Positions 10,364-62,681 of a stretch of 64,000 nucleotides of DNA are shown one piece after another (positions within the stretch are counted from its first letter, which is position 1; every line of letters starts with the position of its first letter). The translations under genes and the position numbers were made by a program. Location of the stretch: positions 395,846 through 459,845 of the forward strand of contig JADJIQ010000001.1 in the NCBI GenBank assembly GCA_016707005.1. The letters run 5' to 3'. The DNA is from Ignavibacteria bacterium. GTDB lineage: Bacteria; Bacteroidota; Ignavibacteria; Kapaibacteriales; Kapaibacteriaceae. The notes below the pieces were generated by a model. The model did no database searches. It was not told the origin of the DNA and saw only the letters and a list, made by a program, of their open reading frames with translations.

Positions 10364-10894
10364 ATGAAGATCCTCCTCTCTGCTATCGCTCTCTTCGTTC
10401 TTGCATCATCTACGGCAGCAGTTGCCCAGGATGAAACACAGCAAACTGTACTCACCGAGTCCATCAAGGGTTCATTCGGCAAGGTCTGGCGCTCTGTGAA
10501 GAGAGCAATGGAGCAATCCGGCTGCCCTAAGCCCCAGACAGAAAAGATCATCGAACCTGCAGAAGAGGGTGGTCTGTATAAAGGGCAATACATTTCCGAC
10601 TACTGTCTTCTCGCTGAAGGTGAAGACAGCACGAAGGACGTGATCGAACGGTATTCAAAGGTTCCGCGCATTCGTGGCGGTATATGGGTCACCTGCCGCG
10701 TGCAGTACAAGATCAACGTCAAGGAGGAAGAAGGCGGTCAGACCAAGATCATCCTCCGCGCCGAAATGTCGGGCTTCGAAGAATTCATCACTGCTGCAAA
10801 CCACTTCTGGGTCTCCAATGGAGACCTCGAACGCAAGATGATGGCCGCGATCATGGCGTTTACGAATGAAGAATTGCAGAAGGCAGGGGAATAG
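10364..10894 (+). CDS. hypothetical secreted protein
   Basis: Internal ATG at 10364 gives signal peptide MKILLSAIALFVLASSTAAVAQ. The longer ORF would overlap the smc 3' end. No recognisable domain. Confidence 0.5.
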   Translation: MKILLSAIALFVLASSTAAVAQDETQQTVLTESIKGSFGKVWRSVKRAMEQSGCPKPQTEKIIEPAEEGGLYKGQYISDYCLLAEGEDSTKDVIERYSKVPRIRGGIWVTCRVQYKINVKEEEGGQTKIILRAEMSGFEEFITAANHFWVSNGDLERKMMAAIMAFTNEELQKAGE

Positions 10895-10972
10895 TTACTC
10901 AGTTACGGAGTTACCCAGTTACCCAGTTACAGAGCTATAGAATAACTGCGTAACTCTGTAACTGCGTAACTA
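10893..10972. repeat. composite inverted array: (AGTTACNN)x5 - spacer - (NNGTAACT)x3 between convergent gene ends
   Basis: Read directly: tAGTTACtcAGTTACggAGTTACccAGTTACccAGTTACag ... ctgcGTAACTctGTAACTgcGTAACTag. The two arms are reverse complements of each other, giving a long imperfect hairpin. The first unit contains the upstream TAG stop. Confidence 0.8.
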
Positions 10973-11200
10973 GGTAATTAGCAAATCATACTCCGCTACC
11001 TTGATATCAAACTCTGCCCCAGGTGAATACATCTGTGCGGTTTCATCGCTAAGAGGCTTGGTGACGCGCACAGTAGCCCAGCAGCCGCCGTGGAATTTTA
11101 CGACCTCTGCCGCGTATAGAGGTTTGCCGCGCAGAGAGACATTGTAGGTGTTGCCAACAACGAAAGCTTCCTTAGCGACCTTATCGTGGACTGGTTTCAT
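10970..11200 (-). CDS. hypothetical small protein
   Basis: 76-aa ORF whose start overlaps the aspartokinase stop in ATGA fashion. No recognised domain. Confidence 0.4.
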   Translation of the reverse strand: MKPVHDKVAKEAFVVGNTYNVSLRGKPLYAAEVVKFHGGCWATVRVTKPLSDETAQMYSPGAEFDIKVAEYDLLIT

Positions 11201-12351
11201 GATGTTGGGTCCTGTGAACTGAGTTGAAGGTGAAGTCTACGCACCACATCCGATGCAACGTGTGCAGGTACGCGCAGTACGGCAGTGCGATCTGCATGCG
11301 ACGTATGAACGTCACATGGCGTGTCGGAGTGTAGTTCAAGTACAACGGACGTAACGGCCGGAAGCCATTGCGGGCAATCGATGAAGACCGTAGTGATCTC
11401 CACATCTGACCCGGCATGATCGGCGATCACGATCGGCAGGCATTGTCCGGGCGCACCATCAATGATCGTGGATTCACCGTTCGGATGTTCAGCACTGGCA
11501 ATACGGATGGGGAGTCCCGAGACCGCAGCCGGATCGATCATCGTAGGATAAAGAAGCTTGAGCCCGTGATGAGCAGCCACCCGAGCCTGATCATAGGTTA
11601 AATGTGGACGTATCGATGTGTTCTCCGTTGTGTGCGGATCGGCACTGCGGATACCTTCCACGTCGGTGAAGATCACCACTTCTTGTGCCTCGAGCAGGGA
11701 GCCAAGGAGCGTTGCTGTGAGGTTGGAAGACTCTTTGCCCATCGTGGTTGTGGCTCCATCCTCAGAACGCCCTACAAAGCCCTGCACCAGTACGATCCGA
11801 TGTTTGGAAAGGGCCGGGAGAAGTTCATGCTGGACCCGGATCGCCGTTTTTTCCGGTATGGGGCTAGCTTTTCCGTGGTCTGCTGTCGTTACGATAACCG
11901 TCTGGGCGTCTACGCCAACCACATCCAGACCAGCCTCCTGCAAGACGTGACGCGCAATGTGGAGGGCAAAGAACTCCCCATGGGCCAAGATCCTGTCCAA
12001 CGTCTTTGGGGTTAGCTGTCGCGTGGTGGACACCCCGTCCAAAACAGCCGTAAGAGCCGTGCGTGCTTCGTCTAGCAACGCCTCCATTCCCTCGCGGGTG
12101 GTTGCCGATGGCAACAGCGCCCTCACAAGCGTTCGATGGTCTGCCACCACCTGGTCCAGACGCTCGCGCGCCTCGGCAGCCAAACCCTTCTGGGCAAGGC
12201 GGGAGGCAAACTCAAGGTCTCGGGTTGCCGTGGCAAATGCTGACACCACTACCAGGGTACCATGACCAGGCTGAGCTTGAAGGATGCGAACCATACGCCG
12301 GAACCCGTCCGGCTCGCGGAGCACGGCTCCGCCGAATTTCATGACGATCAT
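11197..12351 (-). CDS. aspartate kinase (amino-acid kinase family with C-terminal ACT-like region)
   Basis: MKFGG N-terminus, VVVSAF, VQGFVG...TTMGKESSNLTATLLG...IFTDVEGIRSADP matches the aspartokinase catalytic core. Length 384 aa. Confidence 0.7.
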   Translation of the reverse strand: MIVMKFGGAVLREPDGFRRMVRILQAQPGHGTLVVVSAFATATRDLEFASRLAQKGLAAEARERLDQVVADHRTLVRALLPSATTREGMEALLDEARTALTAVLDGVSTTRQLTPKTLDRILAHGEFFALHIARHVLQEAGLDVVGVDAQTVIVTTADHGKASPIPEKTAIRVQHELLPALSKHRIVLVQGFVGRSEDGATTTMGKESSNLTATLLGSLLEAQEVVIFTDVEGIRSADPHTTENTSIRPHLTYDQARVAAHHGLKLLYPTMIDPAAVSGLPIRIASAEHPNGESTIIDGAPGQCLPIVIADHAGSDVEITTVFIDCPQWLPAVTSVVLELHSDTPCDVHTSHADRTAVLRVPAHVASDVVRRLHLQLSSQDPTS

Positions 12352-12393
12352 GCGGCAAATCTAGCACCTGCCAAGTGACCATTCAGCAAGTAC

Positions 12394-12424
12394 TTGCATA
12401 GAATTGTGAACTGCCGTATGTTTG
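12394..12424 (+). promoter_or_regulatory. Bacteroidota-type sigma-A promoter candidate for DUF4295-rpmE-rpsR operon
   Basis: -33 TTG at 12394-12396, then a 20-nt spacer, then -7 TATGTTTG (TAnnTTTG) at 12417-12424. Partly overlaps the 12-nt perfect palindrome GCAAGTACTTGC (12386-12397). Confidence 0.45.
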
Positions 12425-12472
12425 TTGTTCCCACGGAAACGAACTACTCAACCTCAGGCTATTGAGGACGAC

Positions 12473-12646
12473 ATGGCTAAGCAGCAAACATTCGGCGACA
12501 AGACAAAGAAAAAAGCCGGCGATTCGAAGATCAGCGTCAAGGTCATCAAGGCCTTCCGCTCAGAGAAGGGCACCGTTAAGTACATGGAGCGCTTCGTAAA
12601 GGTCGACGACGTTGGACAAATCGACAAGATGGATTTCACGAGGTAA
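12473..12646 (+). CDS. small basic protein, DUF4295-like (ribosomal-protein-associated)
   Basis: 57-aa Lys-rich protein [28 protein letters not shown] directly upstream of rpmE. This resembles the DUF4295 proteins found next to ribosomal protein genes in Bacteroidota. Confidence 0.4.
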
Positions 12647-12651
12647 TTTCG

Positions 12652-12894: not shown

Positions 12895-12909
12895 ACAGGA
12901 GATTATCAC

Positions 12910-13187: not shown

Positions 13188-13280
13188 AATGACGTTAAGA
13201 CAGTTATGACGTTATGACAATTATGACGGTTATGACAGCTGTAACCCCGTAACTGAGTAACTACGTAACTGAGTAACTTC
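13188..13280. repeat. tandem word arrays: (TTATGAC)-like x5 then (GTAACTNN)x5
   Basis: aatgacgttaagacagTTATGACgTTATGACaaTTATGACggTTATGACag then GTAACcccGTAACTgaGTAACTacGTAACTgaGTAACTt, starting 3 nt after the rpsR stop. Confidence 0.8.
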
Positions 13281-13298
13281 TCAAAAGAGTAATTATCC

Positions 13299-13328
13299 AA
13301 AAAAGCCCCGCACTGCGGGGCTTTTTTC
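13299..13328. terminator. bidirectional rho-independent terminator
   Basis: AAAAAA-GCCCCGC-ACT-GCGGGGC-TTTTTT between the convergent rpsR and queG-like genes. Confidence 0.85.
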
Positions 13329-13329: not shown

Positions 13330-14385
13330 TTAGCGCTTGCTGGCATCCACGGCGTGATGCGGAGTGGGACGTCGGCCTCGCTCTCGATGGACCTGTGGGT
13401 ATTCGTGTCTATCAAGAAGAGGGACAGAGTCGCAGACAGGAGGGGGATCGTGCATTACAACCGTGGGGAAGATCTTGGTGGGCTCGCCATTGAAATCTTT
13501 TGCCCATTCCTTGTGGTTGTAGACGCAGACGGGTAAGCAGGCTGAGCAATAGTTGTGTTTGGCGAAGTAGGGGAAACACTTGCCGGTGTCCACCTTGTAT
13601 CGATCATTCCCTAGGTGATCCTTGCCAGCCTCGGGGCTGCGTTCATCCGGAATGGCGTCTGCCGGACAATAGATCCTGCATGCCTTGCACGTATCGCAGA
13701 AGGCGGCAATGCCTGCGTCGATCGGTGCATCACATGCAAGAGGCATTGAGGTGAGCACACTCCCCATGCGAAACAATGGACCAAGCTCGGGGTTGATGAT
13801 GCTACCATGTCTTCCAAGTTCACCAAAACCAGCCTTGAGCCCGATCGGGATGTGAAGCACGTTACTGTCGCCCAGCGGGTGTTCTACTCGGCAGGCATAG
13901 CCCCGCTTGCGAAGGGCATCTGCCAGACCGATCACCACCTCGCCGAGGTCGTGATAGATCCGCATACATTCGATGGCACTTCGCGTATCCGGCACGCTCT
14001 GGAATTCGGCGTATCGCATGCGTTTCCCGACAGCGATTGCGAAGTGTTCGTGAACCTCTCGGCCTCGGTAGATATCAGATGGTTCTATTGCGCAGATACC
14101 AACGATGTCGGCACCAAGGTCTCGCGCTACGGACTTTACCCACGTAGCTGCTTCTTGACCACCAGAGAAAGGCTGCTCAACGTCTGCAACGGGTCCGGTG
14201 AAACGAGGCGCTTGTTCATCATGAATGAGATGCAGGTATTCCTGTACTTCGGAGATCACGATCGAACGACCGCCAACGCCCGCATACCACTCCGCCCAGG
14301 CGAATGCCGGTACTGCATCAGGTGCTGCCCTTATCGGCTCTGATAGGTAGTTGTGGTTGGATGAAAGTGTTTCCATGATTGCCAA
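13330..14385 (-). CDS. QueG-like 4Fe-4S protein (epoxyqueuosine reductase / reductive-dehalogenase-like family)
   Basis: LGADIVGICAIEP N-region, a central GFGELGRHGSII segment, and two Cys clusters CDTCKACRIYCP and CSACLPVCVYN. Has an ~80-aa N-terminal extension that is unusual for QueG. Confidence 0.5.
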   Translation of the reverse strand: MAIMETLSSNHNYLSEPIRAAPDAVPAFAWAEWYAGVGGRSIVISEVQEYLHLIHDEQAPRFTGPVADVEQPFSGGQEAATWVKSVARDLGADIVGICAIEPSDIYRGREVHEHFAIAVGKRMRYAEFQSVPDTRSAIECMRIYHDLGEVVIGLADALRKRGYACRVEHPLGDSNVLHIPIGLKAGFGELGRHGSIINPELGPLFRMGSVLTSMPLACDAPIDAGIAAFCDTCKACRIYCPADAIPDERSPEAGKDHLGNDRYKVDTGKCFPYFAKHNYCSACLPVCVYNHKEWAKDFNGEPTKIFPTVVMHDPPPVCDSVPLLDRHEYPQVHRERGRRPTPHHAVDASKR

Positions 14386-21311: not shown

Positions 21312-22325
21312 CTAGCTGCGCTCTACCCAGCGCCCATCGGTCTTGATGATGTCCATCAGCGCATCCACTGCACCGGCAGCCGGGATGTTGCGCTGAACGA
21401 TGTCTTGGCCTCGATAGAGCGTGATCCGCTCGGGACCCGACCCTACGTAGCCATAGTCCGCATCGGCCATTTCGCCCGGACCGTTGACGATGCATCCCAT
21501 GATGCCGATCTTCACACCCTTGAGATGATCAGTGTGTGACCGAATGAGCGACGTGGTCTCCTGCAGGTCAAACAGTGTTCTTCCGCAGGACGGACAGCTG
21601 ATATACTCTGTCTTTGTCATGCGAGTCCGCGCTGCCTGCAAGACATTGTACGCGAGCCGAAGAGAGAGTGCTTCATCGCGGCGCTCAGCGATACCAACGG
21701 TTAGCATCACTCCGTCGCCGTATCCGTCCACGAGCAGTCCTCCCAGGTCGGTGGCTGCATAAAGCGCAGCAACATCCGGAGAGTGAGCATCCAATTGCCG
21801 TTCAAGGATGATCGGTGTTGTGATGCCGTTCAGAAGGATCGTATCACATGCCATGCGCATGCTGGTGTAGTATGATCGCGACTCACTTCGCAGCATCAAC
21901 ACGGCTGTGGTATCGGCTCCAATTTGCTCCAGGAGCTCATGCGTGATCTCGCGGATCTCACAGCGCACGATGTTCATCACGGAGTGACGATCCGTGGAGC
22001 TGAAATACTCGGCCGCTTCGATGAGCGGTACACAATAGAAGCGATCTGAATGTGTGAGCCAACTGCGATGATCAAGGATCTGCCGCGTACCTGATGGAGC
22101 CATGAAGGTCAATGGGGAGGTGCCCATGTAGAGCAACTCCGCGGCTTGATCTCTCATCGTCCATTTATCCGTTACGGGGTCATAGACGTGACCAACTGCA
22201 GCTAAGTCCTCCATGCTCACGTTCTCGGCTCCTGTAAGGTCTGCTATGACCCTCGGAACGTTGTCGAAGCCAATGCTAGCCACGGCACGGGAACTCCGCC
22301 TGTGGTACGAATACGGATCTCTCAC
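21312..22325 (-). CDS. ispG: IspG (HMBPP synthase), C-terminal part: A* insertion domain plus 4Fe-4S B domain
   Basis: [15 protein letters not shown]...[22 protein letters not shown] is the IspG Fe-S domain. Begins with GTG overlapping the upstream TGA (GTGA) in a different frame from the N-terminal part. Confidence 0.8.
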
Positions 22326-35152: not shown

Positions 35153-35173
35153 CAAGATGAAGGACTAGGTGCT

Positions 35174-35216
35174 AGTTACAAGTTACTAGTTACTAGTTAC
35201 TGGTTACTGGTTACGA
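35174..35216. repeat. tandem heptamer array (AGTTACT / GGTTACT) x6
   Basis: AGTTACaAGTTACTAGTTACTAGTTACTGGTTACTGGTTACg between tRNA-Leu and ppk2. Confidence 0.8.
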
Positions 35217-37154: not shown

Positions 37155-37197
37155 CCTCCTTCCCCATGTTTCGTAAATTTGAGCATGTGTGGAATAA

Positions 37198-37246
37198 CAG
37201 TATTCTAGCACTCGATTTCTAGCATTCTACCACTCTAGCATTCTAA
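37198..37246. repeat. tandem octamer-like array (TCTAGCAY variants) x5
   Basis: tattCTAGCActcgatTTCTAGCATTCTAccacTCTAGCATTCTAac immediately upstream of nuoD. Confidence 0.7.
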
Positions 37247-37247
37247 C

Positions 37248-38540
37248 ATGAGCCTTCCCGTCTCGAACTCCGCCACGATCGAACGTGTTGAAAAGCTGCG
37301 TCAGAACAAGATCCTCCGCGAGGTACAGGACAAAGACACTGTTGCGATGTTCGAGGATCCGCTTGAGAACGATATGGTTCTCAACATGGGTCCGCAGCAT
37401 CCGGCAACACACGGTGTGCTGCGCGTTTTGCTTCGTCTTGACGGAGAGACGGTTGTGAAGTGTGTTCCTGAGCTGGGATATCTGCACCGTGGATTTGAAA
37501 AGATCGCCGAGAACTGTACGTATCACGAGTTCATTCCACATACGGACCGACTCGACTACATCTCGCCGATGTCGAACAACGTTGCGATCTGTATGGCCAT
37601 TGAAAAGGCTGCGGGTATTCATGTGCCGGACCGTGCGGTATGGATCCGTATGCTGGTGAGTGAGCTTGCTCGTATCTCGTCACACCTTTTGGCTATGGGC
37701 GCTACGTCCATGGACGTGGGCGCTATGACGGTCTTCCTTTGGACGTTCACCGAACGTGAAAAGCAGTACGACCTCTTCGAACGGATGTGCGGCGCTCGCT
37801 TCACAACGAGTTTTGCTCGCATCGGCGGCGTAGCCAATGACATCCCGGACGACGTCCTGCGCGACACGCGTGCATGGCTGAATCAATTGCCGGAGCGTAT
37901 GTCGGAAGTAGAACGCCTCGTTAACAGAAATCGCATCTTCGTTGATCGTATGGCCGGCACTGGCTACATCTCGGCAGAGAAGGCCATTGAACTTGGACTC
38001 TCCGGCGCAACGTTACGCGGATCCGGTGTGAACCGCGACCTCCGCCGCGACGAGCCATACATGTTCTACGATCAGGTGGACTTTGACGTCATCACCCGTA
38101 ATGATGGCGACTGCTATTCGCGCTACATGGTCCGCGATCTCGAGATCTGGGAATCAATGAAGATCTGTCACCAGTGCATCGATAAACTCGAGTCAATGCC
38201 ACGTACCCCGGTTCTTGCAGACGATCAGCCACAAACAGTTCTCTCCCGCAAGGCCAACATCTACACCAAGATGGAAGAGCTGATCAACGACTTCATGATC
38301 ATCAACTTCGGAACGATGCCGCCCGTAGGCGAAACCTACACGGCCATTGAATCTCCAAAGGGCGAACTCGGCTTCTTCATCGTGAGCGATGGCACCGGTC
38401 ACCCATGGAAACTCAAGATCCGCTCCCCGTCATCCTCCAACCTTCAGGCCCTGAAATTCATGGCCGAAGGCGCCATGGTCTCCGACGTGGTTGCGATCAT
38501 CGGTAGCATCGATCCGGTGATGGGTGAAGCAGACAAGTGA
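37248..38540 (+). CDS. nuoD: NADH-quinone oxidoreductase subunit D (49 kDa / NuoD)
   Basis: MGPQHPATHGVLRVLLRLDGE...ELGYLHRGFEK and the rest collinear with NuoD. No other nuo genes are adjacent. Confidence 0.9.
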   Translation: MSLPVSNSATIERVEKLRQNKILREVQDKDTVAMFEDPLENDMVLNMGPQHPATHGVLRVLLRLDGETVVKCVPELGYLHRGFEKIAENCTYHEFIPHTDRLDYISPMSNNVAICMAIEKAAGIHVPDRAVWIRMLVSELARISSHLLAMGATSMDVGAMTVFLWTFTEREKQYDLFERMCGARFTTSFARIGGVANDIPDDVLRDTRAWLNQLPERMSEVERLVNRNRIFVDRMAGTGYISAEKAIELGLSGATLRGSGVNRDLRRDEPYMFYDQVDFDVITRNDGDCYSRYMVRDLEIWESMKICHQCIDKLESMPRTPVLADDQPQTVLSRKANIYTKMEELINDFMIINFGTMPPVGETYTAIESPKGELGFFIVSDGTGHPWKLKIRSPSSSNLQALKFMAEGAMVSDVVAIIGSIDPVMGEADK

Positions 38541-38545: not shown

Positions 38546-38660
38546 GAATAGCGAATAGCGAATAGCGAATAGCGAATTCCAAAGTTCGCACATTAGCACA
38601 CTAGCACACTAGCACACTAGCACACTAGCACACTAGCACACTAGCACATTAGCACACTAA
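38546..38660. repeat. tandem arrays (AGCGAAT)x4 then (TAGCACAC)x8
   Basis: agaatAGCGAATAGCGAATAGCGAATAGCGAATtcc ... cat-TAGCACAC x6 -TAGCACATTAGCACAC, starting 6 nt after the nuoD stop. Confidence 0.9.
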
Positions 38661-41194: not shown

Positions 41195-42769
41195 ATGCCC
41201 TCCAGAACCACCGATTCAGAGCGGTTTACAGAACTCCTTTCCCGGGCCGAAGTGCACGAGGAAACGGCCATTCAGAGCCTTGCAGCAGCTGTGGCTCTGG
41301 CCAGAGATAGAATGAAGGGGGCTCAGCGCGATCGATCACTCTGGCGGACACATTGGATACGTGCTGCTCTCCGGCTTGCAGAACTACTGGAACGCAAAGA
41401 GTCGGCACGTGAAGCACTTGAGGTGTTGCAACCGCTCATCCATGAACTGGATGCCTGCGATGATGCCGACCTGGTTATGCGGACCAAACAAGAATTGGGT
41501 CGATATCTGATGATCCGGGGAGATCTCGATATTGCCATGGATCTTCTCCAACAGGCATTGCGAGATGCCGAGGTACTAAATAATACAGCTGTAGCCTCCG
41601 CTGCTTCGGGCAACATCGGCATGGTGTTCTTCAACCACGGCGAGTTCGATGACGCGCTGGTATGGTTCAATAAGACCGTTGTGTTGATGCGTCAACGCGG
41701 AGACAAGGCTCGGACCGCCCTTGCCCTGCGCAGTGTTGGAATGACGCATAGCAAGAAGAAAAGCTATTCCAAGGCATTGAAGTCCTACGCAGACGCATTG
41801 AAGGAACTCAACTCGAGTACCGAGGATAACATCGACTCGCGGATAGAAATCCAGATCCGGGAGTCCATTGGCGTTGATCAACTGAACCTTGCTGATGCAA
41901 CGCAGAAAGCCACGCACTATCAAGCGGCGATAGAGGCATTTTTAGAGTGCCTTGAGCTTGCCAGACGCAATGGGCTTGACGTTTCACGTGCGGTGGCATT
42001 ACGAAATCTCGGCCAGGTCTATGCAGAGACTGACTATGCCGAACATGACATCCACAAAGCCATCGCGTTGTTTGAAGAGGCACGGCAGATCATTGAACCA
42101 AAGTCGATCCATACACTTCACTATCAGATCAACAGAGAGCTTGCATTCGCCTATGAGGCGGTAGGAGACGCCGCCCAAGCACTTGAAGCCTACAAGCGCT
42201 ACCACTCTTCTGAAAGGGCCGTCATTGACCTCGACTCTGCCTCAAAGTTGCGCTCGATCGAAGAACGTCACCGTTTTGAACGATCGCAGGAAGAGTTGCG
42301 AAGAGAACAAGAGCGCTCACTTGAGCTCGAGGCTGAAGCCCGCAAGCGCACCGCGGAACTCTCTCACCTTACTCTAGCCATTGGTGAGACTAATGCTCGT
42401 TTGCGCGATCTCTCAAGCAGGATTCGGGTACAAGCACGTATCGCCGATCAACCAACAAAGCAACTCTTCCTAAATATCATTCAGGACATCGACGCTTCAC
42501 TCGGCACTGAGATCTTCTGGAGTGGAATCGAAGAACAACTATCCAACCTCCATGGTGAGTCGCTTCAGTACCTGTCTAAACATTTTCCTTCCCTTACCCC
42601 TACCGAACGCAAGGTCTGCGCCCTCATTCGGATAGACCTTTCCTCCAAGGAGATCGCCAGACTGCTCAATACGGAACCACGTTCAATAGAAAAGTACCGC
42701 CAACGCATCCGCAAGAAACTCGGCCTCACCGCATCCGACTCGCTGTCCACATTCATTTCGTCTTTATAG
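41195..42769 (+). CDS. TPR-repeat protein with C-terminal LuxR/GerE-type HTH (transcriptional regulator)
   Basis: Multiple TPR-like helices, a coiled-coil segment, and C-terminal LTPTERKVCALIRIDLSSKEIARLLNTEPRSIEKYRQRIRKKLGL, a LuxR-type HTH. Confidence 0.7.
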   Translation: MPSRTTDSERFTELLSRAEVHEETAIQSLAAAVALARDRMKGAQRDRSLWRTHWIRAALRLAELLERKESAREALEVLQPLIHELDACDDADLVMRTKQELGRYLMIRGDLDIAMDLLQQALRDAEVLNNTAVASAASGNIGMVFFNHGEFDDALVWFNKTVVLMRQRGDKARTALALRSVGMTHSKKKSYSKALKSYADALKELNSSTEDNIDSRIEIQIRESIGVDQLNLADATQKATHYQAAIEAFLECLELARRNGLDVSRAVALRNLGQVYAETDYAEHDIHKAIALFEEARQIIEPKSIHTLHYQINRELAFAYEAVGDAAQALEAYKRYHSSERAVIDLDSASKLRSIEERHRFERSQEELRREQERSLELEAEARKRTAELSHLTLAIGETNARLRDLSSRIRVQARIADQPTKQLFLNIIQDIDASLGTEIFWSGIEEQLSNLHGESLQYLSKHFPSLTPTERKVCALIRIDLSSKEIARLLNTEPRSIEKYRQRIRKKLGLTASDSLSTFISSL

Positions 42770-42843
42770 TCATACCGTCATACCGTCATACCGTCATTTA
42801 GTCAGTTAGTCACTTAGTCATTTCTTTGTCCGGCTTTTGTCCG
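42770..42843. repeat. tandem arrays (CGTCATAC)x3, (TYAGTCA)x3, (CTTTTGTCCGG)x2
   Basis: TCATACCGTCATACCGTCATACCGTCAtttaGTCAgttaGTCActtaGTCAtttCTTTGTCCGGCTTTTGTCCGG, directly after the regulator stop and upstream of the RHS gene. Confidence 0.8.
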
Positions 42844-42906
42844 GGTGCGCCGCATTACTGCAAGTGCAAGATTCGCCTCCGAAATCACAAACACCCGGAG
42901 GGGACG

Positions 42907-48784: not shown

Positions 48785-48831
48785 AGGAGCAAAAGTACCT
48801 CATGAAATGACTTCACTCGCTACGCTCGTAG

Positions 48832-48872
48832 TGACAAATGACTGATGACGAATGACCAATGACTGATGACAC
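48832..48872. repeat. tandem (NNATGAC)x5 array
   Basis: caaATGACtgATGACgaATGACcaATGACtgATGACacg in the divergent mtase/alaS intergenic region. Confidence 0.7.
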
Positions 48873-49071: not shown

Positions 49072-51591
49072 ATGACTTCACGACAGATCAGACAGGCGTT
49101 CCTCGACTTCTTTGCAGCACGTGGACATCGCATCGTTCCATCGGCACCGGTGGTTCCGCACGGCGATCCTACGTTGCTCTTTACCAACGCCGGGATGAAT
49201 CAGTTCAAGGATGTGTTCCTCGGAACGGGGAAACGGGAGTACACACGAGCTGTTGATACGCAGAAATGCATCCGCGTTTCGGGGAAGCACAACGACCTCG
49301 AAGAAGTGGGATACGATACGTATCACCACACGCTCTTCGAAATGCTCGGTAACTGGAGCTTCGGAGATTATTTCAAGGAAGAAGCCATCGGGTGGTCGTG
49401 GGAGTTTCTTACAAGCGAGCTTCAACTACCTAAGGACCGACTCCACGCTACGGTCTATCGCACTGATGATGAGTCCTACGAGATCTGGAAGAAGTATCTG
49501 CCGGAATCGCACATACATCGCTTTGATGAAAAGGACAATTTCTGGGAGATGGGTGATACGGGGCCTTGTGGTCCGTGTACAGAGATCCATTTCGACCGGA
49601 CGCCGGACCTGAGTGGTGGACCTCTCGTGAACGCCGGTGTGCCGGAAGTGATCGAGATCTGGAACAACGTCTTCATTCAGTACAACCGCACCAGCGATGG
49701 TACGCTGGAAGACCTGCCGTCACGTCACGTCGATACAGGCATGGGCTTTGAACGACTCTGCGCCGTGATGCAGAAGAAGGACTCCAACTACGACACGGAT
49801 GTCTTCCAACCGATCATCGCCTTCACCGAAGACCTTTGTGGCAAGAGCTATCGCACCGAACTCGATCATCCGGATGGCGTAGCAATGCGCGTGATCGCCG
49901 ATCACATTCGCACACTCTCCTTTGCCATCGCCGACGGAGCCCATCCCGGTAATGAGGGAAGGGGCTATGTACTGCGCCGCATCCTTCGCAGAGCAGCTCG
50001 CTACGCCCGCAACCTCGGTCTGACAGAGCCCGTGCTCTGGAAACACGTTGCCATCCTCTGCGAAACAATGGGCGATGTGTTCCCGGAACTCATTGCACGT
50101 CGCAGCGTTATCGAACGCATCATCAAGGCCGAAGAAGAGTCCTTCCTCGCAACACTCGATAGGGGGCTCCTACGCTTCGATGCCGTTGATACAACCTCCG
50201 GTGTTGTCGGTGGTGCTGATGCGTTTGAGCTATACGACACGTTTGGCTTCCCGTTAGACCTCACGCAACTGATCGCACGTGAGCGTGGACTCACGGTTGA
50301 CGAAGCCGGATATCTGAAACATCTTGAGGAACAGCGCACACGTTCTCGGGCAGCGCGCAAGAGTCACGCCCAGGAAGCGTCAAAACTTTCTATCGATGCG
50401 ATGTCACGTTTTGTTGGGTATAACGCCACTGAGACTTCATCAGCGGTTGTTCACGCAGAAGGAAATCTCATCGTGTTGGCAGAAACTCCGTTCTATGTAG
50501 AGATGGGCGGTCAGGTAGCAGATACCGGACAGATTGTGATAGGGGGCATTCCCTTCCGCGTGGAAGACGTGCGTAAGCACGGCGACGCTATCGTGCATAT
50601 CTGCGAGACGGATGTTGATGCAACAATTGGTGATGTTGCTCTAGCTCAGGTTGATGCACCACGTCGTAAAGACATCGAACGCGAACATTCCGTAACGCAC
50701 TTGCTTCACGAAGCATTGCGCAGAGTGCTCGGATCGCATGTGCAACAAGCGGGGTCGCTGGTTGCGCCGGAGCATCTTCGGTTCGACTTCGCCCACTTCG
50801 AACGTATGCGTCCCGATGAGATCCAAGCCGTTGAAGACATGGTCAACGAAAAGATCTTTGAGTCCATTGCAATCCATACAGAAGACATGCCAATTGAAAA
50901 GGCACGCACAGTGCCTGGCGTAAAAATGTTCTTTGGTGACAAGTATGGCGATAACGTACGCGTGGTATTCATCGATGAAAAGTTTTCCGTTGAGTTCTGC
51001 GGAGGCACACACGTGCAGAACACCAGTGAGATCGGACTCTTCAAGATCCTTGGAGAGAGCAGTGTGGCAAGCGGTGTACGTCGTCTCGAAGCAATTGCCG
51101 GACGAAGTATTCCAACATGGCTCAAGGAGCTCGATGCCAAGCGTGACATCATGTCCGATGACATGGCACGTCAGGCAGAACGCATCAAGCAGCTCGAAAA
51201 AGAACTCGCCTCTCTCAAGACTGACGAACTCAAGACCCTCATCCCATCGATCGTTTCTTCTGCCGTTTCCGTTGGCGATGTACGTGTAGCATCAGCGCGC
51301 GTAACAGTCTCCGATGCAGAACAACTTAAGGACCTCGGAGATGAACTTCGTTCATCGCTCAAGAGCGGTGGCATTGGCCTTCTCGGCTGCGTTCTCGATG
51401 ACAAGGTCCAGCTCGTCTGTGTTGTTACCGATGACCTCACCAAGACCCACAGCGCCGGCAAACTGATTGGCATCGTTGCCAAGGAACTCGGTGGCGGTGG
51501 CGGCGGTAAACCCCACATGGCCACGGCAGGGGGCAGGGACATCGCCAAACTCGACGAAGTCCTCGCAAGCTTCCCTCGTGTAATACAGTAA
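49072..51591 (+). CDS. alaS: alanine--tRNA ligase
   Basis: Class II aaRS N-terminal motifs (FLDFFAARGHRIVPSAPVVP, FTNAGMNQFKDVFLG), editing-domain HxxxH/CxxxH region, and C-terminal DHHA1 (GGGGGKPHMA). Length 839 aa. Confidence 0.95.
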   Translation: MTSRQIRQAFLDFFAARGHRIVPSAPVVPHGDPTLLFTNAGMNQFKDVFLGTGKREYTRAVDTQKCIRVSGKHNDLEEVGYDTYHHTLFEMLGNWSFGDYFKEEAIGWSWEFLTSELQLPKDRLHATVYRTDDESYEIWKKYLPESHIHRFDEKDNFWEMGDTGPCGPCTEIHFDRTPDLSGGPLVNAGVPEVIEIWNNVFIQYNRTSDGTLEDLPSRHVDTGMGFERLCAVMQKKDSNYDTDVFQPIIAFTEDLCGKSYRTELDHPDGVAMRVIADHIRTLSFAIADGAHPGNEGRGYVLRRILRRAARYARNLGLTEPVLWKHVAILCETMGDVFPELIARRSVIERIIKAEEESFLATLDRGLLRFDAVDTTSGVVGGADAFELYDTFGFPLDLTQLIARERGLTVDEAGYLKHLEEQRTRSRAARKSHAQEASKLSIDAMSRFVGYNATETSSAVVHAEGNLIVLAETPFYVEMGGQVADTGQIVIGGIPFRVEDVRKHGDAIVHICETDVDATIGDVALAQVDAPRRKDIEREHSVTHLLHEALRRVLGSHVQQAGSLVAPEHLRFDFAHFERMRPDEIQAVEDMVNEKIFESIAIHTEDMPIEKARTVPGVKMFFGDKYGDNVRVVFIDEKFSVEFCGGTHVQNTSEIGLFKILGESSVASGVRRLEAIAGRSIPTWLKELDAKRDIMSDDMARQAERIKQLEKELASLKTDELKTLIPSIVSSAVSVGDVRVASARVTVSDAEQLKDLGDELRSSLKSGGIGLLGCVLDDKVQLVCVVTDDLTKTHSAGKLIGIVAKELGGGGGGKPHMATAGGRDIAKLDEVLASFPRVIQ

Positions 51592-51650
51592 CCCCGTAAC
51601 CCCGTAACCCCGTAACCCCGTAACTCCGTAACCCCGTAACTCCGTAACTA
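51588..51650. repeat. tandem octamer array (GTAACCCC / GTAACTCC) x8
   Basis: GTAACCCC x4, GTAACTCC, GTAACCCC, GTAACTCC, GTAACTAA. The first unit contains the alaS TAA stop, and TAA recurs in all three frames. Confidence 0.9.
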
Positions 51651-51660
51651 AGGAACAGAC

Positions 51661-52038: not shown

Positions 52039-52133
52039 GGCTTTTTAAGCGGCTTCTTAAAGCGCCTTTGTAAGCGCCTTTGTAAGCGCCTTTGTAAGCG
52101 ATTTCTACAAGCGCCTTCTACAAGCGTCTTCTC
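52039..52133. repeat. tandem ~12-nt array (GCGCCTTTGTAA x3 with degenerate flanking units)
   Basis: GGCTTTTTAAGCGGCTTCTTAAA-GCGCCTTTGTAA x3 -GCGATTTCTACAAGCGCCTTCTACAAGCGTCTTCTC, immediately after the DUF3127 stop. Confidence 0.85.
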
Positions 52134-52202
52134 GATAGGGATACATTTGACTACATTGTATTACATTGTATTCAGTTGTAGTCATTTTTCCAAGGAATCA
52201 TC

Positions 52203-53243: not shown

Positions 53244-53603
53244 ATGGAAACCAAAACTACTACCATTGACCAGTACCTCAAAACGGTTGACGCAGATAAG
53301 CGGCGTGTTCTTGAGGACATACGTTCATCCATCCGCGCTCTCGTACCTGATGCAGTTGAGTGCATCAACTACGGTGTTCCAACCTTTAAACTCAACGGCA
53401 AGAACCTCATCCATTTTGCAGCAGCAAAGAACCATTGCTCGCTTTTTCCAGGTCCCGGCGCAATAGCGGCTTTCTCTGAGGAACTTACTGCCTTTGCTAC
53501 GAGTAAAGGAACCATTCGATTTACGGTGGAGAGCCCCTTACCGAAGAGTTTGGTGAGGAAGATCGTAAAACACCTTGTCGAAAAGACGTCATCCCGAGCG
53601 TAG
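53244..53603 (+). CDS. DUF1801 domain protein
   Basis: IDQYLKTVDADKRRVLEDIRSSIRALVPDAVECINYGVPTFKLNGKNLIHFAAAKNHCSLFPG matches DUF1801. Internal ATG start at 53244. Confidence 0.6.
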   Translation: METKTTTIDQYLKTVDADKRRVLEDIRSSIRALVPDAVECINYGVPTFKLNGKNLIHFAAAKNHCSLFPGPGAIAAFSEELTAFATSKGTIRFTVESPLPKSLVRKIVKHLVEKTSSRA

Positions 53604-53638
53604 TCGAGGGATATGACATTATGACGTTATGACATTTT
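53587..53638. repeat. conserved 25-nt motif CGTCATCCCGAGCGTAGTCGAGGGA followed by (TTATGAC)x3
   Basis: One of three near-identical copies of the 25-mer; the others are at 59268 and 62657. Overlaps the last 5 codons of the DUF1801 gene. Confidence 0.85.
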
Positions 53639-58946: not shown

Positions 58947-59127
58947 GCTCGCCTCACAAAATATGTCAAAAGTGACATATCGTCAAAACGTGATGATTGT
59001 ATTCTCCAGTAAGTGTCTTCATCGTCGAAGAACGTGACGAATGTCATTGAGACTCTCCTGATGGATAGATAGGTTTGAGAATCGGTCATAGAGGTCGACC
59101 TACGACCTCACTGAAACAGAGGCACCT

Positions 59128-59199
59128 ATGCTAAGGGTCATACTCATCATCTTTGTCGCAGCTGCTCTCATCATCGGCATCGCCTTTGTTTGGGGCTAG
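59128..59199 (+). pseudogene. 23-codon remnant of a paralog of the 61759 gene (N-terminal TM helix only)
   Basis: MLRVILIIFVAAALIIGIAFVWG* against MLKIIISIVVVAALIIGIVYAWGYY... at 61759, with 21 identical nt (AGCTGCTCTCATCATCGGCAT). Followed by the same heptamer array plus 25-nt motif that follows the full-length gene. Confidence 0.55.
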
Positions 59200-59202
59200 A
59201 TG

Positions 59203-59292
59203 AACAGCGAACACAGAACAGCGAACAGCGAACAGCGAACACAGAACAGCGAACACAGAACAGCGAACGTCATCCCGAGCGAAGTCGAGGGA
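59203..59292. repeat. tandem heptamer array (GAACAGC/GAACACA)x9 plus 25-nt motif CGTCATCCCGAGCGAAGTCGAGGGA
   Basis: GAACAGCGAACACAGAACAGCGAACAGCGAACAGCGAACACAGAACAGCGAACACAGAACAGCGAA then the conserved 25-mer at 59268-59292. Confidence 0.9.
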
Positions 59293-59435: not shown

Positions 59436-59918
59436 ATGAAACGTGTTGTTGTTTCTATTGTGCTCCTTGCCTTCGCACTGCTTCTACCTTCTCGCATGTT
59501 GGCACAGTGGGTGTCAGTAGACGGACCATACGTAGACGCTGGTGGTGTCTTTGCGCAAGTTGGTTCGAATCTTTTCGTAGCTACAGAAAATTATGTTTTC
59601 CGCTCCACGAACAATGGTGATAGCTGGACACCCGTTAATAACGGTCTGCCAGAAGATGGGATTTATTCACTTTTAGGTGTTGGGACAAAACTTTATGCAG
59701 GCGCGGATGCTAGTTCGGGTTCACTCTATGTTTCCTCCGATAGTGGAGCAAGTTGGAAGATGTTAGATATGATGTATTTCAAAAGCGGAATCAAGCAACC
59801 TGTTGGGGACGTCATGTCTTTGGCTTCGCTGGGTGAAAATCTGTTCGTTGGTACATCATATGGCCTAGTGTTACGCTCGGATAACGAAGGCGACAGCTGG
59901 ACCTTGGTAAAAAGGTAA
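59436..59918 (+). CDS. BNR/Asp-box repeat beta-propeller protein, N-terminal part (signal peptide + first repeats)
   Basis: Signal peptide MKRVVVSIVLLAFALLLPSRMLAQ. SxDxGxSW motifs (STNNGDSWT, SSDSGASWK, SDNEGDSWT). Ends at a TAA created by an A5 run. Confidence 0.7.
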   Translation: MKRVVVSIVLLAFALLLPSRMLAQWVSVDGPYVDAGGVFAQVGSNLFVATENYVFRSTNNGDSWTPVNNGLPEDGIYSLLGVGTKLYAGADASSGSLYVSSDSGASWKMLDMMYFKSGIKQPVGDVMSLASLGENLFVGTSYGLVLRSDNEGDSWTLVKR

Positions 59919-59919
59919 T

Positions 59920-61590
59920 ATGTCATACTCCGTAACTCTTATGGCGCATGAGTCTACTCTCTATGCCGGTACTCATCGTGTTTGCTCATCAACAAATCAG
60001 GGGAATGATTGGACAGATAGTGGAAGTCTCCTCTCAAGAACTAGAGTTGTATCCTTTGCGAAAATTGCAACGCATCTGTTTGCGGCAACAAATGGGGTGG
60101 GGGTGATACATTCGCCCGACGATGGCATTACATGGGATACGGTAGACAATGGCTTACCTGATACTACAGTCAACACTCTCCTCGCAAGTGGTAATGCTCT
60201 GTTTGCGGGTACACGGTCAAGGGGAGTGTATGTCTCTTCAAACTATGGGGCGAGCTGGAGTCCTTCCAATAATGGTTTGACAGACACCACAGTTGCGTCG
60301 TTGATCGAGCATGGCAAGTATCTTTTTGCCTCAACGCCTAACCAGGGAATCCTCCGCTCATCTGATCAAGGTGCTTCATGGACAGAAGCCAATATTGGAT
60401 TTTCAGGCACATCTTTAGTTCGCTCCATACTGAGCAGGGGAGAATATCTTTTTGCTGGAACCGACAAGGGGGGTGCATACCGACATAATGGGGTGAATTG
60501 GCGTTCAACAAAGGTTGGTCTTCAAACTGAGTATGCCAGCTCTTTGGCGGTTCAAGACTCAGTCTTGTTTGTTGGAGTCTTTCGCGTGCAGGCTGCGAAT
60601 CAACGAGGTGGCGTATTCCGTTCCTCCGACGATGGTGATTCGTGGCGTCCATACAACACTGGCCCTAGCAGTGATGTTTGGAGCCTAGCCGTCAACGATG
60701 CAAATGTGTTCGCCGGAACGCAGATTGGTGTGTATCGTTCCACTGATTATGGAGATAATTGGAACGCTGCCAATGGCCCAATTAAAGGCGGAATGGGGAT
60801 AGAAATGAGATATCAGTACATCTTATCTCTCGCTTCTATAGGGACAACGATATTTGCGGGGGGAAATAGAGATGTCTTTGTATCTACAAACTACGGATCG
60901 ACTTGGAGTTTTGTGAGATTCAATGTACCCACGGACAGAATTAGGTCTCTGGCTGCTATTGGAACAAATATGTTTGCTACAACCGTTAACGGGGGAGTGT
61001 TTCGTATCTCAGGAAGCGGTGATACCTACACCGCGGAATCGGCTGGTCTATCTGGGAAGACCGTAAACTCTCTTGCAGTTAGTGGCACGAATCTCTTTGC
61101 AGGAACGGTTGATGGGGGAGTCTTTCTGACAACTGACATGGGTAAAACGTGGACGTCTATTAATGATGGCCTCCCTTATTCGTCGGTTACTGCATTAGCA
61201 ATACATAAAGGAAATCTATATGCGGGTGCAGCATCAATCGTCGAGTTCTGGCATGGCGCGGGTGTCTTTGTTCGCCCCCTTTCTGAGATTGTAACAACGG
61301 TAAATGAAACATCCGCAAGCGAGTTGACTCCATTGCTTCAATCTCAGAACTTTCCGAATCCCTTCACTAATGTGACAGACATTGAATTCACGTTGAGAGA
61401 ATCTGCACACGTTACCATTACGATCTACAATGCACTCGGTGCAATTGTGCAGACAATAGCGTCCAAGGAATTTCCGGCAGGTCACAACACTGCAACATGG
61501 GATGCATCCTCCCATGAAGTCGGTCTGTATTTCTATCGCATAATTGTTGGGTCGCAAAGTGAGACCAAGAGTCTCTTGATCATGCGTTAG
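59920..61590 (+). CDS. BNR/Asp-box repeat beta-propeller protein, C-terminal part with T9SS sorting domain
   Basis: At least 10 further SxDxGxxW repeats. C-terminal CTD FPNPFTNVTDIEFTL...GLYFYRIIVGSQSETKSLLIMR. Continuous with the 59436 ORF if one A is removed from the A5 run at 59909-59913. Confidence 0.75.
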   Translation: MSYSVTLMAHESTLYAGTHRVCSSTNQGNDWTDSGSLLSRTRVVSFAKIATHLFAATNGVGVIHSPDDGITWDTVDNGLPDTTVNTLLASGNALFAGTRSRGVYVSSNYGASWSPSNNGLTDTTVASLIEHGKYLFASTPNQGILRSSDQGASWTEANIGFSGTSLVRSILSRGEYLFAGTDKGGAYRHNGVNWRSTKVGLQTEYASSLAVQDSVLFVGVFRVQAANQRGGVFRSSDDGDSWRPYNTGPSSDVWSLAVNDANVFAGTQIGVYRSTDYGDNWNAANGPIKGGMGIEMRYQYILSLASIGTTIFAGGNRDVFVSTNYGSTWSFVRFNVPTDRIRSLAAIGTNMFATTVNGGVFRISGSGDTYTAESAGLSGKTVNSLAVSGTNLFAGTVDGGVFLTTDMGKTWTSINDGLPYSSVTALAIHKGNLYAGAASIVEFWHGAGVFVRPLSEIVTTVNETSASELTPLLQSQNFPNPFTNVTDIEFTLRESAHVTITIYNALGAIVQTIASKEFPAGHNTATWDASSHEVGLYFYRIIVGSQSETKSLLIMR

Positions 61591-61758
61591 CGGGTGGCCT
61601 CCACGGTTATTCCACTCGTACCTACCTCTCCACTTCGTGTCGTGGTTCCTTTAAAACGTGACAGATGTCATGGGCTATTGCTCCGGGTCGACGTAGATTT
61701 CACCACCAGTTGAACGTGATGAGTCATCACACCCGTGCGTGTTTATGCAGGAGGAGCT

Positions 61759-62589
61759 ATGCTGAAGATCATAATCTCAATTGTCGTTGTAGCTGCTCTC
61801 ATCATCGGCATTGTCTACGCATGGGGATACTATCGATGGGCAACGCGTACAGAATCGTTGCGCTCAAAGCTCTATGGAACAATGCAGAGCCCCATTCCCG
61901 CAACGTATGACCCACACGAGCTTGACAGTCTTCCGTCATGTGTGCAGCGATACCTGCGTTTGGTGCTTGTGCCTGGTCAGCCCATCATACGCGAGGTCTA
62001 CCTCGAGCATGAGGGAGAGATGGACATGTCGCAAGACAAGTGGGTACCATTCACCTCAAAGCAATACATCTCCACACGTGAGCCCGGTTTTATCTGGGAC
62101 GCGCGCATTGCTATGTTCCCCGGCATCAAGGCACACGTCCACGATGCCTTTGTAGATGGCAAGGGGCTCCTTCACGCCTCAGTGATCGGACTCATCACCA
62201 TGATGGAACAATCCGGCAGTGCCTTCGACTACGGCGAGTATCTACGGTGGTGTGCGGAGTCCGCGTGGTACCCAACCGCCATGTTGCCGAGTCAGGGGGC
62301 GTCATGGCAGCCCCTTACCGACACCTCTGCCCGTGTGACCTTCAAAAACGGATCGTTAACTGCCACCCTCACCGTCACATTCAGTCCAGACGGACTCATG
62401 AGTACCATCCGAGCCGAAGACCGCGGCAGGGAAGTGAACAGTCAGACCATCCCCACCCCCTGGGAAGGCCGATGGAGTAACTACATCCGCATGAACGGCA
62501 TGCTTGTGCCGGGTACCGGTGAAGTAGCGTGGATTCTGGAGGAGGGAAGGAAGGTGTATTGGAAAGGCCGAATAGCGAATAGCGAATAG
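61759..62589 (+). CDS. hypothetical N-terminally membrane-anchored protein
   Basis: N-terminal TM helix MLKIIISIVVVAALIIGIVYAWGYY, ~250-aa soluble domain of unknown function. Last 6 codons (RIANSE*) are encoded by the AGCGAAT array. Start at the internal ATG at 61759. Confidence 0.5.
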   Translation: MLKIIISIVVVAALIIGIVYAWGYYRWATRTESLRSKLYGTMQSPIPATYDPHELDSLPSCVQRYLRLVLVPGQPIIREVYLEHEGEMDMSQDKWVPFTSKQYISTREPGFIWDARIAMFPGIKAHVHDAFVDGKGLLHASVIGLITMMEQSGSAFDYGEYLRWCAESAWYPTAMLPSQGASWQPLTDTSARVTFKNGSLTATLTVTFSPDGLMSTIRAEDRGREVNSQTIPTPWEGRWSNYIRMNGMLVPGTGEVAWILEEGRKVYWKGRIANSE

Positions 62590-62681
62590 CGAATAGCGAA
62601 CAGCGAACAGCGAACAGCGAACAGAGAACAGCGAACAGCGAACAGCGAACAGAGAACGTCATCCCGAGCGGAGTCGAGCGA
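62568..62681. repeat. tandem arrays (AGCGAAT)x4 then (AGCGAAC/AGAGAAC)x9 plus 25-nt motif CGTCATCCCGAGCGGAGTCGAGCGA
   Basis: gccgaatAGCGAATAGCGAATAGCGAATAGCGAACAGCGAACAGCGAACAGCGAACAGAGAACAGCGAACAGCGAACAGCGAACAGAGAA then the 25-mer at 62657-62681. Uses the same words as the arrays at 38546 and 59203. Confidence 0.9.

Follow-up and report, generated by a model that had tools for sequence, protein, structure and literature searches.

Why should the stop codons of a compact bacterial genome be followed, time and again, by tandem arrays of short words? The question is raised by a 64,000-nt stretch of an Ignavibacteria bacterium (assembly GCA_016707005.1, contig JADJIQ010000001.1, positions 395,846 to 459,845), here called the window, in which a first-pass annotation had read such arrays at 12 loci and had taken them for 3'-end elements, hotspots of slipped-strand expansion, or a repeat family peculiar to the lineage. 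Comparison with related genomes shows that the arrays arise and are resized by replication slippage and that they do not drift freely, as their cores are kept whereas the bases between them, the number of copies, and even the period change. The reading that we tentatively prefer, at somewhat less than even chances, combines these two results: slippage-made arrays with recognized cores, which would form hairpins at convergent gene ends and frame-closing spacers elsewhere.

Tandem Repeats Finder (TRF) confirmed arrays at all 12 loci, in agreement with direct reading of the sequence. Under the fixed criterion used for counting (period of 5 to 16 nt, at least three copies), the window contains 15 arrays, whereas none of 30 dinucleotide shuffles contains any, whether made from the whole window or from the concatenated intergenic DNA. 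The periods are of 7 or 8 nt, plus one 10-mer and one 12- to 13-mer (52041); period 7 is found in five arrays (35164, 38546, 48832, 59202, and 62569) and period 8 in most others. According to a gene map built from the genes called in matching assemblies together with open reading frames (ORFs), ~93% of the window is coding, and the arrays take up 816 of the 4398 nt of intergenic DNA (19%) held in its 47 spacers. Their density reaches 2.3 per 10 kb in the window versus 0.26 per 10 kb elsewhere, the latter figure coming from 36 arrays counted under the equal criterion in 1.40 Mb of alaS-centered loci of 80 other genomes; 15 gammaproteobacterial loci gave a single array in total. As the arrays recur in many assemblies of one population, made independently from short or long reads, they are not assembly artifacts. 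The copy numbers and periods first assigned needed adjustment at two arrays, with nine rather than eight copies of TAGCACAC at 38588 and a period of 7 (ATGACNN), not 5, at 48832. The arrays and the elements that adjoin them are as follows.

10893..10930: AGTTACNN x5, left arm of an inverted pair; its first unit contains the TAG stop of the gene upstream (10364-10894).
10943..10977: GTAACTNN x4-5, right arm; overlaps the 3' end of a convergent 76-aa gene (10970-11200, minus strand).
13189..13238: TTATGACN(1-2) x5; begins 3 nt past the stop of rpsR (S18).
13241..13278: GTAACNNN x5, two of the units being GTAACTGA; pairs imperfectly with the 13189 array.
13296..13327: canonical terminator of hairpin and T run (AAAAAAGCCCCGCACTGCGGGGCTTTTTT) directly behind both rpsR arrays; context, not an array.
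35164..35214: AGTTACT x7; begins 10 nt past tRNA-Leu, with a single inverted unit GTAACTA at ~35241.
37198..37249, plus strand: degenerate TCTAGCA-type array running into the ATG at 37248; 43 nt past a stop, with a TAAATTTG -7 box upstream at 37174.
38546..38577: AGCGAAT x4.6; begins 5 nt past the stop at 38540.
38588..38659: TAGCACAC x9, as given by TRF.
42769..42823: GTCATACC x3 then GTCANTTA x4; the first unit overlaps the TAG stop of a TPR-GerE gene, and an RHS toxin gene lies downstream.
42824..42846: CTTTTGTCCGG x2, adjoining the 42769 array; weak, two copies only.
48832..48870: ATGACNN x5.6 (GTCATNN on the minus strand), in a divergent region, 47 nt upstream of a methyltransferase start.
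51588..51648: GTAACCCC x7.6; the first unit includes the TAA stop of alaS, and 12 nt separate the end of the array from the ATG of a DUF3127 gene.
52041..52132: GCGCCTTTGTAA-type 12- to 13-mer x7; begins 2 nt past the DUF3127 stop, upstream of a TACATTTG -7 box at 52142.
53612..53636: TATGACNT x3, directly behind the 24-nt motif that holds the stop of a DUF1801 gene.
59202..59268: GAACAGC alternating with GAACACA, x9.6; behind a 23-codon remnant of a DUF6544 N terminus and followed by the 24-nt motif.
62569..62657: AGCGAAT x4 then AGCGAAC x8-9; the end of a DUF6544/DUF6920 gene (61759-62589), 6 residues plus the stop, is encoded by its first three units.
62658..62681, plus strand: dispersed 24-nt motif GTCATCCCGAGCGNAGTCGAGGGA, with other copies at 53588-53611 and 59269-59292, each adjoining an array.

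Length polymorphism between related strains was looked for in 26 strain loci, the strains of which are not independent samples, and it was found in whole units, between the window and strains 98-100% identical to it, as expected of the slipped-strand hotspots that had been proposed. The most variable array is the one at 42769 (GTCATACC), present in 3, 4, 6, 8, or about 9 copies across strains (five alleles in ten assemblies), followed in our account by 38588 (TAGCACAC, 6 to 10 copies), 38546 (four copies, or three in one strain), and 35164, where the copy number differs in 3 of 8 strains. The array at 52041 has one unit fewer (-12 nt) in the locus L004 and an expansion in L006, the one at 10893 has one unit fewer in L114, and the start of the 13189 array carries a 13-nt deletion in one strain type; the arrays at 51588 and 37198 are invariant in 7 and 8 strains, respectively. 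Taken over the alignments, 22 of the 79 indel events fall within arrays, which represent ~1.4% of the aligned sequence (~27-fold enrichment). Near-perfect arrays vary, whereas the degenerate ones (37198, 48832, and 53612) do not, and it is this pattern, together with the whole-unit differences, that identifies replication slippage as the process. A practical point is that the arrays disrupt short-read assembly, several short-read contigs breaking within them (L102, L104, L105, and L106), and that gene callers can lengthen or shorten gene ends there.

Units consist of an invariant core of 4 to 6 nt plus 2 or 3 variable positions (AGTTAC-NN, GTAAC-NNN, ATGAC-NN, GTCA-NNNN, and GAACA-NN, the hyphen separating core and spacer). 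Mismatches affect 2 of 110 core cells versus 20 of 66 spacer cells in four GTAAC arrays, and 1 of 88 versus 21 of 76 in four GTCA arrays; the core positions were chosen partly post hoc, but those set on a single array also apply to the rest. The density of single-nucleotide polymorphisms (SNPs) is 0.42% in alignable arrays versus 1.9% at flanking third-codon positions, a count that omits the wholly replaced arrays of L115 and L116 described below, and the degenerate arrays have 0 SNPs versus ~8 expected from their flanks.

The same cores are found in more distant relatives. L117 is 88% identical to the window overall, with 0.35-0.42 differences at four-fold sites, and behind its rpsR AGTGACNN x8 and GTAACTNN x6 take the place of the TTATGACN x5 and GTAACNNN x5 of the window, so that the TGAC and GTAACT cores are kept; the terminator behind these arrays is identical in both. 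A metagenome scan with the M61 peptidase found two loci, of which L102 reaches the 42769 array and has GTCATTCC in place of GTCATACC, the GTCAT array behind the TPR-GerE gene being kept. In L106, a DUF6544 allele of 90% identity still ends in the AGCGAAT-to-AGCGAAC array, and the alaS-DUF3127 spacer of L021 contains a GTCATTNCTTCT array. In the convergent spacer 10895-10969, L115 and L116, with flanks 95-97% identical to the window, have had their words wholly replaced, carrying TAATGAC x4-5 and GTCATTA/GTAATTA x11 instead of AGTTACNN/GTAACTNN; both keep the inverted arrangement and a stop codon in the first unit. L116 mixes TAGTTAC and TAATGAC units, and we therefore treat the GTAAC/GTTAC and GTCAT/ATGAC cores as one consensus, GTMAY (reverse complement RTKAC).

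The position of the arrays relative to genes is also biased. Among spacers of at least 40 nt, arrays are present in all three convergent ones (3/3), in 7/15 co-directional spacers on the plus strand and 0/4 on the minus strand, and in 2/8 divergent spacers. In 9 of the 10 spacers that follow the 3' end of a gene or tRNA, the array block begins 0 to 10 nt from the stop. The claim that arrays lie directly 3' of stops thus held at nine loci (10893, 13189, 35164 behind tRNA-Leu, 38546, 42769, 51588, 52041, 53612, and 62569, with offsets of -21 to +10 nt), which are nearer the stop than uniform placement predicts (permutation P = 0.0004), and had to be withdrawn at three. At 48832, the "stop" belongs to a spurious ORF, and the array stands just upstream of a minus-strand methyltransferase promoter (TACTTTTG at 48790, minus strand); the 37198 array, downstream of the TAAATTTG box, is a 5' leader of 67 nt; and the 59202 array follows the DUF6544 paralogue remnant instead of the stop of a real gene. 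The stop codon is part of the first unit at 10893, 42769, and 51588 and of the third unit at 62569, and the arrays reach into genes by the last few codons at most. The gap to the next start is 12 to 123 nt, with the 51588 and 38588 arrays ending 12 to 22 nt before it. All three plus-strand frames are closed by 10 of the 15 arrays versus ~35% expected for random units, and as such units have stop triplets in all frames, an array can abut or supply a stop codon.

The recurrence of the same words at distant loci, also pointed out in the first-pass annotation, is real, and in one case it has a simple origin. The 59202 and 62569 arrays are both preceded by DUF6544 sequence and followed by an identical 24-nt motif (GTCATCCCGAGCGNAGTCGAGGGA), so their shared words are due to duplication. 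The motif itself has 3 matches in the window versus 0 expected, and the DUF1801 gene takes its final codons and its TAG stop from the copy at 53588. The motif may constitute a small dispersed element by itself. The 23-codon ORF at 59129-59200 (MLRVILIIFVAAALIIGIAFVWG) is a remnant of the N terminus of a DUF6544 paralogue fused to the 59202 array. In L106, a full-length DUF6544 allele (90% identical) lies directly beside Gp49 with no intervening Por_Secre_tail gene, a structural variant that is bounded by copies of the array together with the 24-nt motif.

As regards structure, a candidate for a 3'-end element is the inverted pair 10893/10943, located between convergent genes, which is predicted to fold into a hairpin of ~37 bp on either strand (free energy [dG] of -38.6 and -41.5 kcal/mol; z of -6.2 and -7.4). 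The L115 allele (dG of -51.6 kcal/mol, z of -5.5) and the L116 allele (dG of -57.6 kcal/mol, z of -10) fold likewise, so that this one convergent spacer has three alleles with different words and always long hairpins, of ~20 to 37 bp. To this extent the proposal of a 3'-end element has partial support, with the architecture kept in two other alleles. Against a single 3'-end family are the mixed orientation of the cores, the terminator behind 13189/13241, the lack of a U tract, and the three arrays in promoter or leader positions. For direct arrays, folding predicts no RNA structure (z of +2.3 for 51592-51660 and of +1.5 for 62569-62700).

The arrays were rejected as intrinsic (Rho-independent) terminators, their hairpins being A+T-rich and without a T run, and the terminator at 13296-13327 being separate; canonical terminators are about four in the window when counted by eye, near 4031, 13300, 18410, and 20630, not only three as had been stated. 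Rho utilization (rut) sites are unstructured, C-rich, G-poor RNA with regularly spaced YC dinucleotides. The arrays do not fit this idea consistently, as their C/G content is mixed and several units lack a YC dinucleotide: C strongly exceeds G only at 51588, 38588, and 37198, and G is equal to or above C at 13189, 38546, 35164, and 62569. A hairpin between the two rpsR arrays was also considered and dropped. A search of Rfam at gathering thresholds returned three tRNAs only and no RNA family over any array.

Are these repeats, then, a new class, as had been suggested? By their sequence features, the arrays belong to an already described one, of the short tandemly repeated repetitive (STRR) or long simple sequence repeat (SSR) kind. 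Long SSRs, which were defined by Mrazek, Guo and Shah (2007), have units of 5 to 11 nt with heptamers the commonest and are mostly intergenic, phylogenetically sporadic, and regarded as products of slippage, as summarized in PMC4679880. The window arrays resemble them in consisting of short head-to-tail units, mostly of 7 to 8 nt and not multiples of three, that are intergenic and subject to slippage; their units are of at most 11 nt (periods of 7 to 10, except for 52041), they are longer than chance allows, and they show whole-unit polymorphism between strains. They differ in their extreme density, in the dominance of octamers over heptamers, in one unit of 12 to 13 nt, and in a clear core-plus-spacer structure. 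A survey found fewer than 4 satellites per Mb in most bacteria (PMC6749651).

Cyanobacterial STRRs are 7-bp repeats of unknown function that can form hairpins between cistrons, which were proposed to stabilize transcripts or couple translation (PMC2670836). They share with the window short-unit intergenic tandem arrays capable of such hairpins, and they differ in host (Cyanobacteria versus Bacteroidota) and in that most window units are of 8 nt. In the intergenic TAACTGA arrays that MacGregor (2015) described in Beggiatoaceae, Cyanobacteria, and five Bacteroidetes, other heptamers are mixed in, strains differ by indels in 7-nt steps, stops occur in all frames, upstream stop codons are overlapped, and contigs break inside arrays (PMC4679880). 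In the window, all of these traits recur, and the words themselves are approached by the GTAACTGA units at 13249 and a TCAGTTA at 42802. The TAACTGA repeats of BOGUAY, however, are mostly forward and lie a few nucleotides upstream of a start, whereas the window arrays are anchored at stops, with only 37198 running into an ATG, and one dominant heptamer contrasts with many different words. No tandem TAACTGA pair is present in the window, where TAACTGA occurs only in non-adjacent GTAACTGA octamers (13250 and 13266). The canonical STRR words are CCCCAGT, TTGGTCA, and CAACAGT, none of which has a tandem copy in the window on either strand, and the GTCATTG unit at 48832 is what we take to be a rotation of the STRR2 word TTGGTCA. 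As none of these words is tandem in the window, strict membership in STRR1-3 or in the TAACTGA family fails.

Other systems are more remote. REP sequences are imperfect palindromes of ~35 nt spread by RAYT transposases, and their alternating units form hairpins thought to protect mRNA 3' ends. REP/BIME elements are comparable in being extragenic, specific to a lineage, and located at the 3' ends of genes and between convergent ones, but the window units are non-palindromic 7- to 8-nt words amplified in place, and unit length and structure rule REP/BIME out; none of the genes called within the window or near it, the part of the genome that was searched, is listed with a RAYT-like Pfam family. 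CRISPR was excluded by a period of 7 to 13 nt with 0 to 3 variable bases, against repeats of 23 to 50 nt with unique spacers, and integron attC was set aside without a specific test. MetJ binds 8-bp metboxes, the omega repressor binds 7-bp heptads in direct or inverted sets, and TRAP binds (G/U)AG repeats with spacers of 2 to 3 nt. A conserved core, free spacer bases, a fixed short period, and direct or inverted sets are common to these and to the window arrays, but theirs are operators or leaders at few sites with a known binder, whereas the window has many loci behind stops and a putative binder at most. Borg elements contain pervasive, perfect, fast-evolving tandem direct repeats of independent origin at many genic and intergenic sites (PMC9879509); these are archaeal, extrachromosomal, and often within genes, where they give rise to disordered protein regions, whereas the window arrays are chromosomal and intergenic and have words in common.

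The arrays are not peculiar to the lineage either, as similar arrays were found in metagenome-assembled genomes (MAGs) of other Chlorobi, Ignavibacteria, and Bacteroidales. Among them are a complex 138-nt TACGACT/TACCACT array of a Kapaibacterium MAG (L022, 18014-18151) and, in a Chlorobiota MAG, ACTGACM x6 placed immediately before the ATG of alaS (L027, 9951-9993); one Bacteroidales and one Calditrichota locus (L060 and L056) have 4 to 5 arrays in ~12 kb. What is new is a very dense set of arrays in a Kapabacteria-like lineage, with dominant octamers, core-plus-spacer units, and inverted pairs.

How these observations fit together can be put as follows. Arrays are made and resized by slippage in the little unconstrained DNA, directly behind stop codons, of a 93%-coding genome, and a sequence-specific factor or process would recognize their cores. 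Inverted arrays between convergent genes may form a long RNA hairpin by which both transcripts are ended or protected, a role that the predicted folds make plausible, and direct arrays may serve as unstructured inter-cistron spacers closing all three reading frames.

Several observations weigh against this combination, in addition to the post hoc element in the choice of cores. Its main weaknesses are the mixed orientation of the cores, the canonical terminator behind the rpsR arrays, and the inferred nature of any RNA 3'-end role. On the sense strand, the core reads RTKAC at 10893, 13189, 35164, and 53612 and GTMAY at 51588 and 42769. As a canonical terminator directly follows the rpsR arrays, they are not needed for termination there, and the pairing between them is marginal in the window (z of -2.5) and not significant in L117 (z of -1.0); no array hairpin in the window carries a T run or U tract. 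The positions of three arrays are those of promoters or 5' leaders, and the Kapaibacterium relative L022 has an alaS-DUF3127 spacer of similar length without an array. Once a promoter of ~45 nt before the next start is excluded, arrays fill all of the remaining spacer, so stop adjacency alone requires no function. Nor is the SNP deficit proof of selection, because concerted evolution, which renders array divergence all-or-none, and the omission of replaced arrays both bias it; the appearance of low SNP density and of conserved hairpins can also be produced by concerted evolution and quasi-palindrome (template-switch) correction.

The foremost alternative, which we consider possible and less likely than the combined reading, is that the arrays are neutral or selfish by-products, slippage-prone sequences that spread into tolerant DNA and have no role in the cell. 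Their cores would persist since only units with an intact core keep expanding, and template-switch correction would keep the inverted arms complementary. The whole-unit polymorphism and ~27-fold indel enrichment are what this view expects, as are the filling of all space from the stop codon to the next promoter zone, the complete replacement of words at one spacer between alleles with 95-97% identical flanks, the lack of an array in the matching spacer of L022, and the mixed core orientation; it also agrees with Mrazek's slippage view of long SSRs, as summarized in PMC4679880. It is harder to reconcile with mismatches so strongly concentrated in spacer positions in four independent GTAAC and four GTCA arrays, with cores retained at 0.35-0.42 synonymous divergence, with 0 SNPs versus ~8 expected in degenerate arrays that slip poorly, or with a 93%-coding genome that spends 19% of its spacer DNA on arrays. 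By analogy with MetJ and omega, the arrays might instead be double-stranded DNA platforms for a cooperative binder, functioning as a roadblock, insulator, or nucleoid organizer at gene ends. The 7- to 8-bp period, the invariant core with free spacer bases, and the occurrence of cores in both orientations, in direct or inverted sets, suit double-stranded recognition; we nonetheless hold this improbable, as the binder is putative with no candidate protein identified, unrelated words (TAGCACAC, AGCGAAT, and GCGCCTTTGTAA) would each need their own, and the arrays are behind housekeeping genes and not in operators.

A smaller share still of our confidence goes to 5'-leader control of downstream translation, which MacGregor proposed for the TAACTGA repeats and which would involve binding by S1 or by Csp-like or CsrA-like proteins in Shine-Dalgarno-poor genomes. 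The leader position of the 37198 array, the short distance (12 to 22 nt) from the 51588 and 38588 arrays to the next start, the array abutting the alaS ATG in L027, and the predicted lack of structure in direct arrays would all be in line with it, and regulatory effects of heptamer repeats have been reported or proposed: TAACTGA in PMC4679880, and, in a Nostoc preprint, a heptamer-repeat deletion that alters promoter activity (10.1101/2022.06.06.494920). Yet the arrays are anchored at stop and not start codons, with the next start 12 to 123 nt away, all three convergent spacers carry arrays that no start codon follows, and the orientation is mixed. Least probable of all, in our view, and very much so, are contingency loci, in which copy number would switch or tune the expression of neighbors as in phase variation. 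The most variable array, 42769, does sit between genes for a LuxR-type regulator and an RHS toxin, but most arrays flank housekeeping genes (alaS, rpsR, tRNA-Leu, and the NuoD-like gene), they are behind stops and not within ORFs or between promoter boxes, and a change in copy number switches no reading frame.

Concerning the host, an uncultured bacterium, the 98-100% identical matches to the window are MAGs from activated sludge and wastewater (e.g., GCA_016705185.1, GCA_963853545.1, and GCA_016708405.1). Relatives of alaS were sought with AlaRS in a one-genome-per-species collection; among the matches listed, which do not include the window's own species, the nearest alaS genes have 57-67% identity and come from Candidatus Kapaibacterium, Kapabacteria, Chlorobiota, and Ignavibacteria MAGs. 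Membership in the Bacteroidota agrees with the presence of Por_Secre_tail proteins and with a DUF4295 match, weak and below threshold, to the small gene that precedes rpmE, and the host fits a Kapabacteria-like member of that phylum. The Bacteroidota -7 box TAnnTTTG is intergenic in 12 of its 18 copies, though only 6.9% of the sequence is intergenic, and often lies 4 to 6 nt from a start codon (e.g., 2382, 12356, 27727, 41098, and 48790, the last on the minus strand), a distance so short that it suggests that many mRNAs of the lineage are leaderless or nearly so. A scan of the window for sigma-70 promoters and terminators gave counts equal to the shuffle level and was uninformative, unlike the TAnnTTTG box.

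The window has other features of interest. In front of an RHH-ParE toxin-antitoxin pair, 52142-52186 reads TACATTTGAC TACATTGTAT TACATTGTAT, a tandem repeat of the -7 box region that is probably an antitoxin operator outside the word-array family; its 52152-52186 portion, which duplicates the box region, was left out of the family. The 348-aa gene at 13330-14376 (minus strand), with a weak 4Fe-4S match, differs by 7-8% of its nucleotides in some strains (18-21% at four-fold sites) while its neighbors differ by <1-3%, which suggests a local recombination tract or diversifying selection. The ispG (GcpE) gene at 21312-23224 (minus strand) is represented by two ORFs with a 4-nt overlap (GcpE of 300 aa and GcpE_C of 337 aa) and may be split or frameshifted in the lineage. 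A lone 430-aa Complex1_49kDa (NuoD-like) gene (37248-38540) lies between esterase and SpoU methylase genes, outside any nuo operon, and has arrays on both sides. At 59909, the window has an extra A relative to L001, L002, and L103, either a frameshift or a sequencing error, which splits a 717-aa Por_Secre_tail/BNR gene into 59436-59918 and 59920-61590. A 16-nt motif, ACGTGACNNATGTCAT, is common to 59032-59047 and 61656-61671 (2 copies versus 0.06 expected), one copy being upstream of the Por_Secre_tail gene and the other upstream of the DUF6544 gene, and a palindrome, ATATGTCAAAAGTGACATAT, adjoins the Gp49/HTH pair at 58961; these are likely regulator binding sites. Exact-protein look-ups gave no match for the ORF 62781-63953 or for a conjectured DUF6544 product, and succeeded for Gp49 and L31.

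What heptamer and octamer arrays of the STRR type do has been a question ever since their discovery in cyanobacteria, and the lineage studied here is a favorable comparative system for it, with dense arrays, a compact genome, many near-identical MAG strains, relatives at 88-97% identity, and recognizable promoter boxes. Copy number, spacer bases, period, and word turn over, while short cores, stop anchoring, and the inverted-pair hairpin are kept. Should this constraint come from a binding factor or from an RNA 3'-end role, it would amount to a gene-boundary mechanism beyond the hairpin-plus-U and Rho models. Further, the GTMAY/TGAC-core arrays and the STRR and TAACTGA words could conceivably, although we would not bet on it, all be platforms for one conserved, putative oligomeric nucleic-acid-binding protein that marks gene ends; if true, this would be a cross-phylum 3'-end system, serving transcript protection, insulation, or termination where a genome has few canonical terminators.

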